A DNA stretch of 21,365 bases from a bacterium (GCA_050125095.1 JASFEA010000042.1:1-21365), one strand, 5' to 3'; positions 7,282 through 14,864 are shown, counted from the first letter of the stretch. Made by a program: numbers and translations. The notes: generated from the sequence alone by a model not told the origin.

Positions 7282-8634
7282 ATGTTCAGAAGTGTGCTCA
7301 TAGCCAATCGCGGCGAAATCGCGCTCCGCGTGATCCGCGCGTGCAAGGACCTCGGCATAAGGACGGTGGCCGTACACTCGGAGGCCGACCGCACTTCCCC
7401 GCATCTGGAGGAAGCCGATGAGGCCGTGTGCATCGGGGGCTCGAGAAGCAGTGAGTCCTATCTCAACATGGAGGCCATTATCCAGGCGGCCGTCCAGAAC
7501 GAATGCCAGGCCCTCCACCCCGGCTACGGTTTTCTGGCCGAGAACGCCCTTTTCTCGGCCATGTGCGCCCAGAGCAAGGTGACTTTCATCGGGCCGCCGC
7601 CGCATGCGGTAAGGCTCATGGGGGACAAGGCTCGCGCGCGCGAGACCATGATCGACCTGGGCCTGGAGCCCATACCCGGCTCCGAGGGCACCATACGCGA
7701 CCTGGCCCATGCCCGCGAGAGCGCAGAGGAGATTGGATACCCGGTGCTCCTCAAGGCCACGGCCGGCGGAGGCGGCAAGGGCATGCGCGTCGTCCAGGAC
7801 GCGGGCTCGATCGAGGACGCCTTCAGCCAGGCCTCCATGGAGGCCGAGAAGGCCTTCGCCAACCCGTCGCTTTACATGGAGAAGTTCATCGCGCGGGGCA
7901 AGCACATAGAGTTTCAGATCCTGGCGGACGTCTTCGGTAACGCAGTTCACCTGGGCGAAAGGGAGTGCTCCATTCAGCGGAGCCATCAGAAGCTTATAGA
8001 GGAGTCGCCGTCCCCGGTGATATCCGCCGAGATAAGGAACGAGCTGGGGGCTAAGGTGGCCAAAGCCGTCGCGGCCATAGGCTACGTCAATGCGGGCACC
8101 GTGGAGTTCCTGCGCGACGAGGAAGGCAATCTCTACTTCATGGAGATGAACACGCGCCTCCAGGTCGAGCACCCGGTCACCGAAGTGGTTACGGGTTTCG
8201 ATATCGTAAAGGAGCAGCTCAGAATCGCGGCCAACTGTCCCTTAAGCATCACCCAGGATGACGTCAAGATGACCGGCCACGCCATCGAATGTAGGATAAA
8301 CGCCGAGGACCCGGCCAGCGGCTTCAAGCCCGACCCGGGTACGCTTGAGGCTTTTGAGCCGCCCACGCTGGACTCGGTGCGCGTGGACACCCACATACGG
8401 GCGGGCTACACCATACCGCCTTTCTACGATTCGCTCATATGCAAGCTCATTGTGCGCGGCGACGATCGCCGGAGCGCAATCGCAAACACAATAGCCGCCC
8501 TCAAGGCCTTCAAGATAGAGGGCGTCAAGACCACGGTGCCCATTCATATCGATATTCTGGGCTCGGACGAATTCCGGAAGGGAACCTACTCAACGCGTTT
8601 CGTCGGGGATTTCCTGGCCGCCAGGGGGAGTTGA
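7282..8634 (+). CDS. accC: Biotin carboxylase subunit (stand-alone)
   Basis: [75 protein letters not shown]. Confidence 0.96.
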
Positions 8635-8638
8635 CAAT

Positions 8639-10363
8639 ATGGCAAAGGTGCTGCTTCAGCCGATAGGCTCCAAGCTCGAGACTTTCGCGAGCGCCGATGA
8701 CGCGCGCGCCAATGCGGAAGCCATGGACCGGCTCGAGAAGGCAATAGCCGAGAAGCGGGCCGAGGTCAAGGCGGGCTGGGGCCGGAAGTACGTCGACCGC
8801 GTGCATGAGAAGGGAAAGCTCACTACCTGGGAGAGGCTGGAGCTACTTAAAGACCCCGGCACCGAAATCCTCCCCATCGGCACATTCGTCAACTACGGGC
8901 GCGAGTTCGAAGGCGGCAAGAAATGCCCCGGGGCAGGCGTGGTGACGGCCTTCGTGCGCGTCAAGAACCGCTACACCATGGTCATCGCCAATGACAACAC
9001 CGTGGCCTCGGGGGCGTGGTGGCCAATGACGCCCGAGAAGATAGAGCGCGCCCAGCATATCGCCATGCGCCTGCGCATTCCGGTCATATACCTTATCGAC
9101 TGCAGCGGCCTCTTCCTCCCCGAGCAGAGCCGTTCGTTCCCGGGCCCCACGGGCGCGGCCTTCATCTTCAAGATGAACAGCCTCCTCTCGGCCAACGGCG
9201 TGCCGCAGATAGCGGCAGTGTTCGGGGACTGCATAGCGGGCGGCGGCTACATGCCCATCATCTCAGACCGCGTCTACATGACCGAGCAGGCCTACATGGT
9301 GATCGCCGGGGCGGCCCTGATCAAGGGCGGCAAGTCGCAGAACATCACATCGCTTACCATAGGCGGGGCCGACATTCACTGCCATATCTCCAACTGCGCC
9401 GACTTCCGGGGCCCCGACGACCCCGCCGTGATAGAGATGATAAGAGAGGATATTTCAACACTCCCCAACTCGGCCGCCGAGTACTACCGGTACAAGGGAG
9501 ACGCGAGCGACCCTTCGTATGACACGGCCGAGCTCAAGCAAATCTTCCCCAGCGACTACCGTATGTCCTATGACACCCGCCAGGTCATAGCCCGGCTCGT
9601 CGACTCGAGCCTCTTCTGGGAGGTGCTCCCGGGAAAGGGCGAGGAGATGATCACCGGGATCGCCCGCATAGGCGGGCTCTATGTAGGCGTCATCGCCAAC
9701 AACCAGTACCTCATAGACCACACCGAGTACCCCGACCAGAAGCGGCCGGGCGGCATACTATATCGTGAGGGCATATCCAAAATCTCGCAGTTCTCGAGAA
9801 CCTGTAATTCCGACGGCATACCCATTGTATGGCTGCAGGACGTGTCCGGGTTCGATATAGGCGTGGAGGCCGAGAAAGAGGGACTCCTGGGCTACGGCTC
9901 CAACCTCCTCTACACCAACTCCACCAACACCGTGCCCATGATCACAGTGCTTCTGAGGAAAGCCTCGGGCGCGGGCTATTACGCCATGTCGAGTATCGCA
10001 TACGACCCCGTGCTCCAGCTCTCAACCCCCGTAACCAGGCTTGCCGTAATGGAGGGGAGAACTCTTGCCATCGGGACTTACCGAAGCAAACTCGATGACA
10101 ACTTTGAGATCATCACCAAGGACGAAGACGAACGAAAGAAGATACTTGAGGGCATGCAGGCCGTAGAGGACAGGATAACCGCGGACATGGACCCGGTGAA
10201 ATCCGCATCTCTCATGGACACGGACGAAGTCGTCTACATGGGTGAGATCAGAGCGTATCTTGAGGCAATGGTGGAAATGAGTTACCAGTCCATCGGCTAT
10301 AGGAGAATAAAGAACCCGAGGATCTGGTCGGTGCATGACATCCAGAACCTGACCGACATATAG
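8639..10363 (+). CDS. Acyl-CoA carboxyltransferase subunit, methylcrotonyl-CoA carboxylase beta / glutaconyl-CoA decarboxylase alpha-like
   Basis: [60 protein letters not shown]; two crotonase-type domains. Confidence 0.9.
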
Positions 10364-10461
10364 GGGAACGCGGTGAAGTGCGGAGGACAGCAGCAGAGGC
10401 GCCAAGAACAACATGAGCGGCAGAAGAACGCGGCAGACCGCAGGGGATAAAGGGAGACCCG

Positions 10462-11106
10462 ATGGCCAGGACAGAGCATGAGATGCTGAGGCTCATGGGC
10501 GAGCCCAAAACATGCGCGGTGAGAGAGGTGGAAGGCCACCCGGGCCACTTCGATGTGCTCTCACCGGGCGTCGGCCTCTTCGACCTGCCCCCCGCCGTGG
10601 GCACCTACCTTAAGCCCGGCTCCTTCGTGGGGTATCTTACGATACTTCGCCGCTACTTCCATCTCATGCTGCCCGAGAACCATCACGGTGTCGTGACCGA
10701 GCACTTCATCACAACACGCAGCCACAGGGTCGAGTATGGCGAGCCTCTCTTCCGGGTGAGTCCCGAAAGCGCCAGTCTCGCGGACGCTGCGCGCGAGCTG
10801 GGCGAGACCGAATCCGGCGGCGTCTCGGACGACATCCCGGAAGGCATGTTCGGCGTACGCTCTCCTACCGACGGCATCTTTTACCGCAGGGCCAATCCCC
10901 AGTCGCCCGCATATGCGGAGGAAGGCGAAATCATCACGCAGGGGGCCACCCTGGGCCTTGTGGAAGTCATGAAGTGCTTCAACCCCATCGTCTATCCCGG
11001 CGAGCCCGAGTTCCCGCATGAGGCGAGGATCGTGAGGATCGCCGCCGAGGACTCCGCCGAGGTCAAGCACGGCACGGTGCTCTACATAGTGGAGCCCAAA
11101 GCCTGA
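10462..11106 (+). CDS. accB: Biotin carboxyl carrier protein with two biotinyl/lipoyl-type domains
   Basis: C-terminal domain RSPTDGIFYR...GLVEVMKCFN carries the biotin Lys. N-terminal domain SPGVGLF...VEYGEPLFRV has no MK. RBS AAGGGAG. Confidence 0.85.
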   Translation: MARTEHEMLRLMGEPKTCAVREVEGHPGHFDVLSPGVGLFDLPPAVGTYLKPGSFVGYLTILRRYFHLMLPENHHGVVTEHFITTRSHRVEYGEPLFRVSPESASLADAARELGETESGGVSDDIPEGMFGVRSPTDGIFYRRANPQSPAYAEEGEIITQGATLGLVEVMKCFNPIVYPGEPEFPHEARIVRIAAEDSAEVKHGTVLYIVEPKA

Positions 11107-11302: not shown

Positions 11303-11359
11303 TTGACACGGACCCTGATTGCAGTATAATCAACTGCAAGTGCAGTAATACCCACTGCA
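11303..11359 (+). promoter_or_regulatory. Consensus sigma70 promoter with two tandem palindromic operators
   Basis: TTGACA (11303-11308), 16 bp, TATAAT (11325-11330); TTGCAGT-N7-ACTGCAA (11319-11339) and TGCAGT-N7-ACTGCA (11341-11359). Confidence 0.85.
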
Positions 11360-11374
11360 GAAGGAGAGACGGCC

Positions 11375-11977
11375 ATGCTGTACGACTTGTTTGGTTCCCG
11401 CCTTCGTGCGAAAGCACTGGGGTGGCTACTCACGCACCCGGATGAGCGATATTTCGTCAGGCAGCTTACCGGAATCCTCGGTGAGGACTCGACCAATCTC
11501 AGCCGTGAGCTGACCAGACTCGCTCGCATGGGCATCCTGGTCGCTGAGCGGGAGGGCCGGCAGAAATACTACCATGTCAATCGTGATTCTCCTGTGTTTG
11601 AGGAACTCAGGGGACTGGCTGTCAAGACCTTCGCAGTTGCGGATGTCCTGAGGGAGTCTTTCAGTCACCTGTCCGAACGAATACGCGTAGCATTTGTTTT
11701 CGGCTCGTTCGCCGAAGGCCGCGAGAACGCCCAAAGTGATATTGATCTCGCGATTGTTGGAGATGCAAACCTCGCAGAGGTATCAAAGGCGCTGGGGAAG
11801 GCGGAGGACACGCTCGGAAGGGAGATAAATGTGTCAGTCTATCCCGTGGCGGAGTTCAGGTCGAAATTGAGGCATGGGCATCATTTCGTGACCTCGCTTA
11901 CGAAGGCCAGGAAGATCTTCCTGATTGGAGACGCGGATGACCTTGCAGAACTGGTTGAAAAGCCGTTATCTGATTGA
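11375..11977 (+). CDS. Winged-HTH (ArsR-like) fused minimal nucleotidyltransferase (MNT), antitoxin-type
   Basis: N-terminal LFGSRLRAK...LSRELTRL...GRQKYY HTH; GSFAEGRENAQSDIDL = GSx10DxD; RBS AAGGAG. Confidence 0.9.
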   Translation: MLYDLFGSRLRAKALGWLLTHPDERYFVRQLTGILGEDSTNLSRELTRLARMGILVAEREGRQKYYHVNRDSPVFEELRGLAVKTFAVADVLRESFSHLSERIRVAFVFGSFAEGRENAQSDIDLAIVGDANLAEVSKALGKAEDTLGREINVSVYPVAEFRSKLRHGHHFVTSLTKARKIFLIGDADDLAELVEKPLSD

Positions 11978-12374
11978 ACACACAGCCAGCCGCCAGGAGA
12001 TCAGCGACCTGCGACAGGGTGCTGCGCAAGATCTCGAAGACAGCCGAGTCTCCGGGCTAAGCGCCGGAGGGCGGTTTAACTTCGCCTATAATGCCGCACT
12101 CAAGACGGCTACTGCGGCTCTCGCTGCCTCGGGATATCGAGCCTCCCGGGATCAGCACCATTTCCGTGTCATCCAGTCACTGAGGTTCACGGTCGGTCTT
12201 GATTCCAGCTTGATTGAGTTGCTGGAGCGCTGTCGGAAAAAGCGCAACATCAGCATATACGAACGCCCGGGCACGATCTCGGACCAGGAGGCAGATGAGA
12301 TGACCCAATTGGCGCTGAAGATCCAGGCCACCACCGATAAGTGGCTGAAGGAGAGATTTCCCGATCTCTCATAG
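11937..12374 (+). CDS. HEPN-superfamily protein, partner of the MNT
   Basis: All-helical pattern, FNFAYNA, GYRASRDQHH, RKKRNISIYE. ATG at 11937 behind GGAG; overlaps the MNT gene by 41 nt. Confidence 0.75.
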   Translation: MTLQNWLKSRYLIEHTASRQEISDLRQGAAQDLEDSRVSGLSAGGRFNFAYNAALKTATAALAASGYRASRDQHHFRVIQSLRFTVGLDSSLIELLERCRKKRNISIYERPGTISDQEADEMTQLALKIQATTDKWLKERFPDLS

Positions 12375-12735: not shown

Positions 12736-13389
12736 GTGACCAAAACAAGACCCAGGGGGCGGCCAAGGCTCGACCCGTCGCTCCGCAGACGAGAGATCCT
12801 GGAGAAGGCCATCAGGCTCTTCGCCCGGAACGGTTATACCCGTACGGACGTCCAGGCCGTCGCCCGCTCCCTTGGAATAGCCAAGGGGACTGTGTATCTC
12901 TATTTCAGCTCCAAGAGGGACCTCTTTCTGGCGGCGGTGGAATTCGCCATAAAACGCCTGGCCGAGAGGATCGACGGGGAGGTCGGGAAGGCTGCAGGCC
13001 CTACCGAGAAGGTGAAGGCCCTCGTAGGCGCGCACTTCCGGTTCTTCGACGAGGACGAGCCCCTCGCTGAGGTCATCGTCCGGGAGGGCGGTGAGTTCAG
13101 GGCCCACGCCGAGAGCACGTACTATTCCATCTACGCGCAGAACGCCGGCCGCCTGGAGAAAATCGTCCGCGACGGCGTCAAGCTCGGGGTCTTTCGCCGC
13201 ACCAGTCCCAAGAGGACAAGCGAGATCCTGGCGAACCTGCTGAGCGGGACCATATACACGCATCTTTACGGGCACAGAACGGGAAAGGCTGCGGACGCCA
13301 CCGAGGCGACAACGGAGTTTTTGCTTCACGGCATCGCGTCTCAGCCTGGAAATCGCAAGAAAAGTGCATATAAGCGGAGGCGCAAATGA
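12736..13389 (+). CDS. TetR/AcrR family transcriptional regulator
   Basis: ILEKAIRLFARNGY...VARSLGIAKGTVYLYFSSKRDLF HTH; RBS GGAGGG. Confidence 0.95.
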   Translation: MTKTRPRGRPRLDPSLRRREILEKAIRLFARNGYTRTDVQAVARSLGIAKGTVYLYFSSKRDLFLAAVEFAIKRLAERIDGEVGKAAGPTEKVKALVGAHFRFFDEDEPLAEVIVREGGEFRAHAESTYYSIYAQNAGRLEKIVRDGVKLGVFRRTSPKRTSEILANLLSGTIYTHLYGHRTGKAADATEATTEFLLHGIASQPGNRKKSAYKRRRK

Positions 13390-14864
13390 GGATATTACTT
13401 GTCTACCCTGAATACCCGGCCACTTTCTGGAGCTTCAAATACGCCCTCGGATTCATCTCAAAAAAGGCGGTATTCCCGCCGCTCGGGCTCTTGACCGTCG
13501 CGTCGATGCTCCCGGAGGAATTCGAGGCCAGGCTTATAGACATGAATGTCGAATCCCTGAGAGACCGGGACATCGACTGGGCGGACTACGTCTTTGTAAG
13601 CGCCATGTCCATCCAGCGCGATTCGGCCGTCGAGGTTATTTCAAGGTGCAGAGCACTGGAGACGAAGACGGTTGTCGGCGGCCCCCTCTTCTCTTCCGAA
13701 CCCGAGGATTTCGAGGAAGCCGACCATCTCGTTCTCAACGAAGCCGAGGTCACCATGCCCCGGTTCATCGCAGACCTCCTGGCGGGCTGCCCCCGACACG
13801 TCTATACAACAGATGAACTCCCGTCCATGGAACTGGCGCCGATACCGAAATGGGACCTGCTCGACATGAGCAAATACCAGGGCATGAGCGTCCAGTTCTC
13901 CCGCGGCTGCCCCTTCGACTGCGAGTTCTGCAATATCTCGGCGCTGTTCGGCCACAAGGTAAGGACAAAGAGCACGGAGCAGACGCTGGCGGAGCTCGAG
14001 AGCCTGTACACGAGCGGCTGGAGGGGCAGCGTGTTCTTCGTCGACGACAATTTCATAGGCAACAAGCGGGCTCTTAAGAAGGTCCTCTTGCCCGCCATCA
14101 TCGAATGGATGGAAAAGAGGAAACGGCCTTTTTACTTCAACACCGAGGTCTCGGTTGACCTCTCCGACGACGAGGAGCTCATGGACCTCATGGTTAGGTC
14201 GGGCTTCGTGTCGGTATTCGTGGGCATTGAAACACCGAACGAAGCGAGTCTCGCCGAATGCAGCAAGCTGCAGAACAAGAACCGCGATCTACTGGCATGC
14301 GTGAAGAAGATGCAGGATAAGGGGCTTCGGGTGCAGGCCGGCTTCATCGTCGGTTTCGACAGCGACCCGGTCTCGACATTCGACAGCATGATAGCCTTCA
14401 TCCAGAAGAGCGGGATCGTCACGGCCATGGTAGGCCTTCTGAACGCCCCCCGCGGCACCAAGCTTCACAAACGCCTCGACGAAGAGGGCCGGCTCCTGAG
14501 AAAGATATCGGGCGACAATACGGACTTCACGCTCAACTTCATCCCCAAGATGGAAAAGGAGACCCTGGTCGGCGGCTATGAGAGAGTGGTCAGCACGATC
14601 TATTCAGCCGGTCCGTATTATGAGAGAGTCAGGAGATTCCTGAGGGAGTTCAATCCCCCGAGAAACAGCGGCTCCCGTTTGAGTTTCCGGGACATCAAGT
14701 CGCTCTTCAAGTCATCACTGCATCTTGGAATCGTCGACCGGGAAAGGTGGCATTACTGGAGGATCGTCCTATGGTCCCTGTTCAAGCGCCCGCGCGTGCT
14801 GCCGCTTACGGTCACTTTCGCGGCCTACGGTTTCCACTTCAGAAAGATCTTCAGGATCTCATAG
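13386..14864 (+). CDS. B12-binding domain radical SAM protein (DUF4070-type C-terminus)
   Basis: PPLGLLTVA and VVGGP (B12 domain), SRGCPFDCEFC (CxxxCxxC), FFVDDNFIGN, GFIVGFDSD; ATGA overlap with TetR. Confidence 0.93.
   Translation: MRILLVYPEYPATFWSFKYALGFISKKAVFPPLGLLTVASMLPEEFEARLIDMNVESLRDRDIDWADYVFVSAMSIQRDSAVEVISRCRALETKTVVGGPLFSSEPEDFEEADHLVLNEAEVTMPRFIADLLAGCPRHVYTTDELPSMELAPIPKWDLLDMSKYQGMSVQFSRGCPFDCEFCNISALFGHKVRTKSTEQTLAELESLYTSGWRGSVFFVDDNFIGNKRALKKVLLPAIIEWMEKRKRPFYFNTEVSVDLSDDEELMDLMVRSGFVSVFVGIETPNEASLAECSKLQNKNRDLLACVKKMQDKGLRVQAGFIVGFDSDPVSTFDSMIAFIQKSGIVTAMVGLLNAPRGTKLHKRLDEEGRLLRKISGDNTDFTLNFIPKMEKETLVGGYERVVSTIYSAGPYYERVRRFLREFNPPRNSGSRLSFRDIKSLFKSSLHLGIVDRERWHYWRIVLWSLFKRPRVLPLTVTFAAYGFHFRKIFRIS

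Follow-up and report, generated by a model that had tools for sequence, protein, structure and literature searches.

The stretch of DNA considered here (GCA_050125095.1, JASFEA010000042.1:1-21365; hereafter the window) is a contig of 21,365 nucleotides (C42) from a 3.35-Mb bacterial genome that is 91% complete and whose nearest relatives with named records are labelled Candidatus Eisenbacteria. [quoted passage not shown] Together they form a real, conserved, and apparently undescribed biotin carboxylase variant, in which a CT that is sister to GcdA, the alpha subunit of glutaconyl-CoA decarboxylase, is combined with a carrier of two domains in tandem. The features of the operon, including those by which the CT is compared with the beta subunits of 3-methylcrotonyl-CoA carboxylase (MCC) as well as geranyl-CoA carboxylase (GCC) and with PccB of propionyl-CoA carboxylase (PCC), are as follows.

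7282..8634, + strand: biotin carboxylase (BC) of 450 aa, an ATP-grasp subunit that stands alone (Pfam Biotin_carb_N, CPSase_L_D2, Biotin_carb_C)
8639..10363, + strand: carboxyltransferase (CT) of 574 aa, in a clade of its own that is sister to GcdA (PF01039, 357 bits; tree; approximately unbiased (AU) test)
9704..9751, + strand: CT insert, aa 356-371, common to GcdA and absent from MCC/GCC-beta and PccB rows (46-CT alignment)
10070..10291, + strand: CT C-terminal region, about aa 478-551, which aligns with GcdA and not with MCC-beta or AccD1 (phmmer)
10462..11106, + strand: biotin carboxyl carrier protein of 214 aa with a pair of lipoyl/biotinyl-type domains (alignment, model)
10495..10809, + strand: carrier N-terminal pseudo-biotinyl domain, aa 12-116, without the conserved lysine (predicted fold, blastp)
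10831..11097, + strand: carrier C-terminal AccB-type biotinyl domain, aa 124-212 (predicted fold compared with 1bdo)
10972..10974, + strand: AAG codon for Lys171 of EVMKCF, predicted biotinylation site (conserved motif)

The genes for BC and CT are separated by 4 nt and those for CT and carrier by 98 nt, with a Shine-Dalgarno-like AAGGGAG ahead of the carrier ATG and no terminator-like site found on the + strand between the three genes. Homologues of the CT with 60-91% identity occur at 80 loci, in records labelled Eisenbacteria, Planctomycetota, Myxococcota, Acidobacteriota, and others, among them Engelhardtia mirabilis, Candidatus Uabimicrobium, and Nannocystis punicea. The three-gene operon, whose conservation the preliminary description had left to be checked, is widely kept: the carrier gene is adjacent downstream of the CT gene at 75 of 77 assessable loci, and a BC gene is adjacent to the CT gene at 57 of 76 loci and within 5.5 kb at 66 of 76. 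No BC is present in the upstream DNA of 10 loci that have room upstream (L034, L053, L062, L063, L080, L081, L082, L086, L091, and L096), both Candidatus Uabimicrobium loci included; the carrier is present at all of these except L053, L063, and L080, and at such loci the housekeeping AccC may take over the charging of the AccB-like carrier. An all-against-all comparison of neighboring ORFs used a thinned ORF set in which greedy picking left some antisense frames (e.g., cluster 1). The database labels of the CT homologues are automatic and conflict with one another, including both 'acetyl-CoA carboxylase carboxyltransferase component' and 'propionyl-CoA carboxylase'.

The BC contains the three expected Pfam domains, Biotin_carb_N (154 bits), CPSase_L_D2 (237 bits), and Biotin_carb_C (124 bits). 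It is 55% identical to the AccC of its own genome, 51% to a BC of PCC, and 50% to the BC of MCC from G018, a genome of the same class. It also scores 637.8 bits against the NCBIfam accC model; this model was rejected as a marker of origin from acetyl-CoA carboxylase (ACC) because every stand-alone BC tested passes it, those of PCC and MCC included. The premise of the preliminary description that a BC and carrier encoded by separate genes are unusual does not hold within this phylum, where separate BC and BCCP genes are also the arrangement in a true MCC (G018) and in a PCC (G017).

The CT matches the Pfam Carboxyl_trans model (PF01039) over positions 2-481 of 493 with 357 bits, so that both halves of the model are covered. 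Among solved structures its best match is GcdA from Acidaminococcus fermentans (1pix; 1.7e-75, query residues 23-551), and all of the segments quoted as GcdA-like in the preliminary description are located in the CT. The structures of AccD1 and MCC-beta score nearly as well as 1pix, but their alignments end near residue 477. Identity is 28-32% to GcdA and about 35% to MccB. An alignment of 46 CTs comprised 21 of this family, 15 of GcdA type (including A. fermentans), 4 of MCC/GCC type, and 6 of PccB type, with the Pseudomonas aeruginosa LiuB and AtuC and human MCCC2 sequences outside the set; the GcdA sequences were gathered by scanning genome records with a motif from the 1pix alignment. In this alignment, the insert at aa 356-371 and a C-terminal DE(I/V)V...R.Y.EA...YQ pattern are shared only with GcdA. 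A 17-residue insert is seen only in GcdA (in all three GcdA rows printed) and is lacking in the CT family. In addition, a three-residue stretch is found in the CT family, GcdA, and true MccB, and is missing from the GCC-like and PccB rows; its region belongs to the acyl pocket according to the accessible part of PMC4673880.

All four CT groups are monophyletic in the 46-sequence tree. The split that places the CT family and GcdA on one side and the MCC/GCC and PccB types on the other receives a Shimodaira-Hasegawa-like approximate likelihood ratio (SH-aLRT) of 100 under both LG+G4 and LG+C20, and the same split is supported at 100/100 in a careful tree of the 46 CTs. Within it, the 15 GcdA rows form their own clade (100/100) and the 21 rows of the CT family a separate one (98/98). 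The CT groups first with GcdA and next with MCC/GCC-beta. The alternative in which the CT family joins the MCC/GCC clade was rejected by the AU test (25 rows, LG+G4; delta lnL 36, p 0.0004), for a grouping that was named after inspection of the tree. Long-branch attraction would be expected to draw GcdA towards PccB, and the observed tree differs from this expectation. Because of the 100/100 split, the AU rejection, and the alignment features, the sequence comparisons indicate that the CT is a lineage of its own and is not nested in MccB. This agrees with the preliminary description, which had likened several CT segments to GcdA.

A further class of CTs, which lies outside the tree, was observed in 15 Planctomycetota genomes (G099, G065, G118, G082, G084, G101, G137, G103, G119, G089, G044, G086, G067, G134, and G071). 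Its members are 35-40% identical to the window CT and 45-48% identical to true MccB, and in most of the 15 genomes the alignment spans nearly the whole CT, to about residue 550.

The carrier matches Pfam Biotin_lipoyl at its C-terminus with 22.1 bits, a score at the cut-off, and the model of the whole carrier has a pLDDT of 91. In this predicted model, the C-terminal domain superposes on the E. coli BCCP 1bdo with a VIA-align Z of 15.0 and an rmsd of 1.0 at 34% identity over 80 of 80 residues, and is therefore AccB-like. The residues E168, M170, K171, and F173 are invariant in an alignment of 55 carriers. A conserved (A/V)MK motif marks the site of biotinylation, and from this motif Lys171 is predicted to be biotinylated. 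The N-terminal domain (aa 12-116), folded alone, gives a pLDDT of 84 and VIA-align Z scores of 10.5 to the BCCP 4rcn, 10.0 to 2d5d, and 9.5 to 1bdo. Its only invariant columns are P35, G38, P71, and G76, with no conserved lysine, and blastp aligns it with the biotinyl domain of the genome's own AccB at 34% identity (E 2.6e-4); both carrier domains have blastp matches only to AccB. The N-terminal domain is therefore a dead copy of a biotinyl domain, since it has the biotinyl fold, lacks a conserved lysine, and matches AccB. A BT domain, as a candidate for this half of the carrier, was ruled out by the matches of the isolated domain to biotinyl/lipoyl domains (Z 9.5-10.5).

The fate of the N-terminal domain differs with the arrangement of the genes. 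At 7 of the 80 related loci (L043, L052, L056, L066, L068, L070, and L093), a short linker rich in Ala and Pro joins the CT in frame to nothing but the biotinyl domain, and the N-terminal domain is lost, whereas the domain is kept in 66 of 66 separate carriers. One fusion (L025) retains the N-terminal domain, and L084 is ambiguous owing to N's in its sequence. Its loss in seven CT fusions and retention in separate carriers fit a role as a tether, and the domain probably holds the carrier to the complex.

The window genome encodes several other biotin enzymes, and these bear on what the operon may do. Genes resembling accA and accD lie on contigs C39 and C87, and efp-accB...accC on contig C85. 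PCC is split over contig ends, with the start of its CT gene at the end of C78 beside a leucine dehydrogenase gene and the genes for BCCP and methylmalonyl-CoA mutase at the start of C111; a BC gene for PCC is not in the assembly of this genome, and G017, of the same genus, has the intact order PccB-BC-BCCP-mutase (locus L124). Contig C162 carries the single OAD_beta gene, for the Na+-pump subunit, which immediately follows a gene of OadA type with its own biotinyl domain. Thus accA, accD, accB, accC, the split PCC, and OadAB account for the remaining biotin enzymes, and no MCC is found among them. An enzyme that carboxylates the alpha carbon of saturated acyl-CoAs (acetyl-, propionyl-, or longer) would be in keeping with some of the database labels, with the AccC/AccB-like BC and BCCP, and with the 10 loci without their own BC nearby, whose carrier AccC may serve. 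However, the tree places the CT with GcdA, MCC, and GCC and apart from the PccB-type rows (100/100), the genome already has ACC and PCC genes, and the labels in question are automatic and mutually inconsistent, all of which makes this assignment improbable.

The presence of OAD_beta in the genome likewise raises the question of whether the CT could belong, as alpha subunit, to a Na+-pumping decarboxylase with a beta subunit encoded elsewhere, as its nearest characterized relative, GcdA, might suggest. The preliminary description had noted that no such beta subunit is encoded in the window, and OAD_beta is indeed found in 0 of the 21 window ORFs scanned with Pfam; the genome-wide absence of gcdB/oadB that it had thought worth checking does not hold, given the copy on C162. 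No link between this copy and the CT was found, as the only OAD_beta sits beside OadA. Furthermore, OadA-type genes occur in only 7 of the 15 genomes of the phylum, as against 13 of 15 for this CT, a BC gene adjoins the CT gene at 57 of 76 loci, and the CT lacks the 17-residue insert. A pump subunit is thus a very improbable identity for the CT.

Clues to the substrate come from the gene neighborhood of related operons. At 10 of 81 loci (L079, L089, L090, L092, L093, L094, L095, L097, and L099 of the 80 related loci, together with G063), the operon stands beside an archaeal-type HMGCS (the synthase of 3-hydroxy-3-methylglutaryl-CoA, HMG-CoA)/thiolase/DUF35 triad, a LiuC/AtuE-like hydratase, and/or an acyl-CoA dehydrogenase; at L098 the triad genes are located further upstream. 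In G063, of the Planctomycetota, HMGCS-thiolase-DUF35-ECH-BC-CT-BCCP (ECH, enoyl-CoA hydratase) forms an uninterrupted row with a CT of this family. The corresponding cluster of G018 has the order HMGCS-thiolase-(DUF35)-MccB-hydratase-BC-BCCP, and its CT is a true MccB, with 748 bits to P. aeruginosa MCC-beta, 719 to human MCC-beta, and 446 to GCC-beta. The window genome itself has HMGCS, thiolase, DUF35, and a LiuC/AtuE-like hydratase in a row on contig C28 (L127:5031-8462), with no carboxylase genes, followed by genes for a peroxiredoxin, an amidohydrolase, and a 2-oxoacid:ferredoxin oxidoreductase. The cluster synthase scores 553 bits against the archaeal HMG-CoA synthase model (cut-off 353), and the cluster hydratase is nearest to AtuE/LiuC-type models.

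The distribution of the CT was compared with that of canonical MccB in 15 genomes of the window phylum that are at least 85% complete, 121 Planctomycetota genomes, and 101 Myxococcota genomes, where a CT counted as canonical MccB if 53% or more identical to the CT of G018 and as this CT if 53% or more identical to the query. In the window phylum, the 13 genomes that belong to the order of the window all combine a single PccB-type CT with this CT. The 2 genomes of a sister family lack this CT and have, besides a PccB-type CT, one of 500-510 bits (true MccB). This CT is present in 11 Planctomycetota and 30 Myxococcota genomes, and canonical MccB in 35 and 26, respectively. Canonical MccB is absent from every carrier of this CT (0/13 in the window phylum, 0/11 in Planctomycetota, and 0/30 in Myxococcota), and among non-carriers it is found in 2/2, 35/110, and 26/71 genomes. 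When pooled, canonical MccB occurs in 0 of 54 genomes with this CT and in 63 of 183 without it (Fisher p 4e-9, uncorrected for relatedness), a value that is too strong, as related genomes are not independent samples. Of 46 Planctomycetota genomes with a LiuC-type hydratase, 6 have this CT, 32 canonical MccB, and 8 only a CT of 45-51% identity, and the hydratase is found in 0 of 60 Planctomycetota genomes without such CTs. Paralogues of GCC-like type (44-52% identity) are found alongside this CT and also alongside canonical MccB; that of Nannocystis scores 747 bits to GCC-beta. Engelhardtia mirabilis Pla133, a culturable bacterium with this CT, has no CT of MCC/GCC type.

Taken as a whole, the trio would constitute a three-subunit ATP- and biotin-dependent acyl-CoA carboxylase. 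The BC would carboxylate biotin on Lys171 of the carrier, and the carrier would then swing to the CT, where the carboxyl group would be passed to the gamma carbon of a 2-enoyl-CoA. The reaction would most likely be that of 3-methylcrotonyl-CoA to 3-methylglutaconyl-CoA, the MCC step of leucine/isovalerate metabolism, and the degenerate biotinyl-type domain of the carrier would stand in for the BT domain of the MCC/PCC alpha chain, probably as a tether. GcdA, MCC-beta, and GCC-beta all act at the gamma carbon of 2-enoyl-CoAs, and since the CT belongs to their clade, the class of gamma-carboxylase is a fair one. We infer substrate and direction from genomic context, and on that footing the operon most likely replaces MCC by a paralogue, because its cluster position is shared with true MccB and because it and canonical MccB never share a genome among those sampled. 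The probability of this reading, in which the enzyme is an MCC analog rather than a carboxylase with new chemistry, is put at about 60%; as part of it, the CT has most likely displaced canonical MCC in many bacteria. The preliminary description had proposed an ATP-driven gamma-carboxylase of an enoyl-CoA, and its choice of class is upheld by the GcdA/MCC/GCC clade and by the BC and BCCP partners, but a new substrate such as crotonyl-CoA is disfavored by the gene context and the exclusion of MccB.

Several observations weigh against the assignment as an MCC. The CT is not orthologous to MccB (tree 100/100, AU test), and its putative substrate is assigned entirely by context. The identity cut-off between MccB and GCC-like CTs was chosen after the scores had been seen, and the Myxococcota values run continuously from 55 to 49%. 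Also, 23 carriers (19 among the 30 from Myxococcota and 4 among the 11 from Planctomycetota) have a GCC-like paralogue in addition, which might supply MCC activity, and a LiuC-type hydratase was not found at E <= 1e-45 in 5 of the 11 Planctomycetota carriers. No leucine-pathway neighbor is present at 71 of the 81 loci, the window included. The acyl-CoA dehydrogenase at L099 (8388-9560) scores 363 bits to butyryl-CoA dehydrogenase/enoyl-CoA reductases and 261 to isovaleryl-CoA dehydrogenase. Lastly, where MCC-type rows have Phe-Phe-Gly, the CT family has Gly-Ala-Ala and GcdA has Gly-Gly-Gly, and the acyl pocket would therefore not be MCC-like there. This site corresponds to the region of MCC-beta Phe191 in the accessible part of PMC4673880, by a mapping onto the CT that is made by alignment only and is uncertain.

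Some of these points would suit an ATP-dependent gamma-carboxylase of another enoyl-CoA (e.g., crotonyl-CoA to glutaconyl-CoA) or one of broad specificity. The CT is sister to GcdA, whose substrate pair is glutaconyl-/crotonyl-CoA, and resembles it in having small residues (Gly-Ala-Ala) where MCC-beta has Phe-Phe-Gly; the adjoining dehydrogenase is butyryl-CoA-dehydrogenase-like, and GCC-like paralogues stand alongside this CT in 23 genomes. Even so, such a substrate appears unlikely. True MccB occupies the same cluster position in G018, the mutual exclusion with canonical MccB is strict in 54 genomes, the hydratase linked to the operon is LiuC/AtuE-like, and HMG-CoA, which the linked synthase makes or uses, is methyl-branched. 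Furthermore, neither a gene for glutaryl-CoA dehydrogenase nor another that would consume glutaconyl-CoA was seen among the conserved neighbors.

The direction of the MCC reaction is a separate matter. HMG-CoA lyase and a LeuA-type gene were not found in any of the 15 genomes of the phylum, nor was HMG-CoA reductase found in the window genome (91% complete), and a mevalonate pathway was rejected on the latter count as the cause of the linkage to HMG-CoA synthase. Therefore, HMG-CoA would be tied to acetyl-CoA only through the synthase complex, whether this works in the catabolic sense (backwards) or in the anabolic one (forwards), and the fate or source of HMG-CoA is unusual. The L099 dehydrogenase and its equivalents in L089-L097 are closest to Bcd/EtfAB-type and AcrC-type enoyl-CoA reductases (5ol2, 4l1f, NF042972); the type of this neighbor bears on pathway direction, and PDB and NCBIfam naming gives it no clear substrate class. 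MCC itself is reversible in vitro. The enzyme could act in reverse, from 3-methylglutaconyl-CoA to 3-methylcrotonyl-CoA and CO2, on a route from acetyl-CoA and HMG-CoA to isovaleryl-CoA (for iso-fatty acids or leucine), with the BC either regaining the energy of decarboxylation as ATP or serving regulation. In keeping with this, GcdA of the sister clade is the CT of a decarboxylase, the HMGCS/thiolase/DUF35 complex forms HMG-CoA (as reportedly described by Voegeli et al. 2018), the neighboring dehydrogenase and the lack of lyase, LeuA-type synthase, and reductase genes point the same way, and a 2-oxoacid:ferredoxin oxidoreductase gene follows the C28 cluster.

A reversed enzyme is nonetheless rather doubtful. 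The ATP-grasp BC is kept beside the CT in most loci, the canonical ATP-dependent MCC is in the same cluster in G018, and the genes for leucine dehydrogenase and for PCC/mutase on other contigs are in line with catabolism; to our knowledge, no biotin enzyme makes ATP in vivo. The narrower proposal that, with lyase, reductase, and LeuA missing, the enzyme runs towards decarboxylation of 3-methylglutaconyl-CoA to 3-methylcrotonyl-CoA and saves ATP by way of the BC working backwards is quite unlikely. If true, it would describe a soluble, ATP-yielding counterpart of the Na+-pumping decarboxylases that feeds isovaleryl-CoA or leucine.

The enzyme can be compared with several known systems. The nearest characterized relative of the CT is GcdA (A. 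fermentans 1pix; Clostridium symbiosum 3gf3), with the insert (16-20 residues) and the C-terminal region in common, but the CT is partnered with an ATP-grasp BC and GcdA with the membrane protein GcdB, and the GcdA-specific 17-residue insert is absent here. The GcdA loci found belong mostly to Bacillota, with some in Myxococcota/Deltaproteobacteria, Synergistaceae, and spirochaete metagenome-assembled genomes, whereas the CT family occurs in different phyla. MCC (LiuB/LiuD; P. aeruginosa 3u9r-3u9t, human 8j4z) probably shares both reaction and pathway role with the present enzyme and has the same position in the HMGCS cluster, and the three-residue stretch kept in the CT is a further MCC-beta likeness, being absent from GCC-beta in the accessible portion of PMC4673880. 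Unlike MCC, the present system has a non-orthologous CT (about 35% identical), separate genes for BC and carrier in place of a fused alpha chain, no BT domain, and an AccB-like carrier with an added pseudo-biotinyl domain.

Heteromeric ACC (E. coli 1bdo, 4hr7) has counterparts of the AccC-like BC and of the AccB-like C-terminal domain of the carrier, but the CT is a single PF01039 chain of 574 aa rather than AccA/AccD, the carrier is tandem, and separate accB and accC genes lie on C85. The split MCC and PCC of the window's phylum have the same three-way division, but with MccB- or PccB-type CTs. The yngE/yngH/yngHB genes of Bacillus subtilis also encode a split three-subunit carboxylase; its CT, like that of archaeal ACC/PCC, is of PccB or MccB type, and we know of no three-subunit carboxylase with a GcdA-sister CT or a pseudo-biotinyl carrier domain. 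The archaeal ACC/PCC likewise consists of three polypeptides, BC, BCCP, and CT, in the part of PMC3199775 that is accessible, and the CTs of glutaconyl-CoA decarboxylase are not mentioned in that part. In a sulfate reducer, a GcdA-like protein is fused to a carbamoyl-phosphate-synthetase-like part, according to the accessible portion of PMC13416013. No description of the CT family or of a tandem pseudo-biotinyl carrier was found in a literature search that left subscription journals mostly outside its reach and excluded supplements.

If the MCC reading is correct, a biotin carboxylase lineage that is now labelled inconsistently as MCC, ACC, or PCC, and that occurs in no fewer than 54 of the genomes sampled from three phyla, would offer a clear example of one paralogue displacing another for a single metabolic step. 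This would matter when the metabolism of uncultured members of Eisenbacteria, Planctomycetota, Myxococcota, and Acidobacteriota is reconstructed. The CT lineage is the closest ATP-dependent relative of GcdA, and therefore provides an entry point to the question of whether Na+-pumping decarboxylases arose from carboxylases or the reverse. In addition, a dead biotinyl domain in the place of BT predicts a holoenzyme architecture unlike the solved structures of MCC, PCC, and GCC.

The genes that flank the operon give no metabolic hint. Upstream of the operon lie genes for UbiB, LysE, a deacetylase, MoxR, and DUF58, and downstream are genes for a nucleotidyltransferase with a helix-turn-helix (HTH), a TetR regulator, a B12-radical SAM protein, and GlgB. 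A perfect sigma-70 consensus (TTGACA, 16 nt, TATAAT) is found at 11303-11330. Just 3' of it, at 11375-11977, an ArsR-type HTH is fused to an MntA-like nucleotidyltransferase, which is overlapped by a small ORF with no family match (11925-12374); this pair (11375-12374) may be of a type VII toxin-antitoxin-like kind. The region at 12736-14864 encodes a FadR-like TetR regulator with a 4-nt overlap with the start of a B12-binding radical SAM protein that has a DUF4070 tail. The best NCBIfam match of this latter protein is a lipid-biosynthesis B12/radical SAM family, with a score far under the cut-off.

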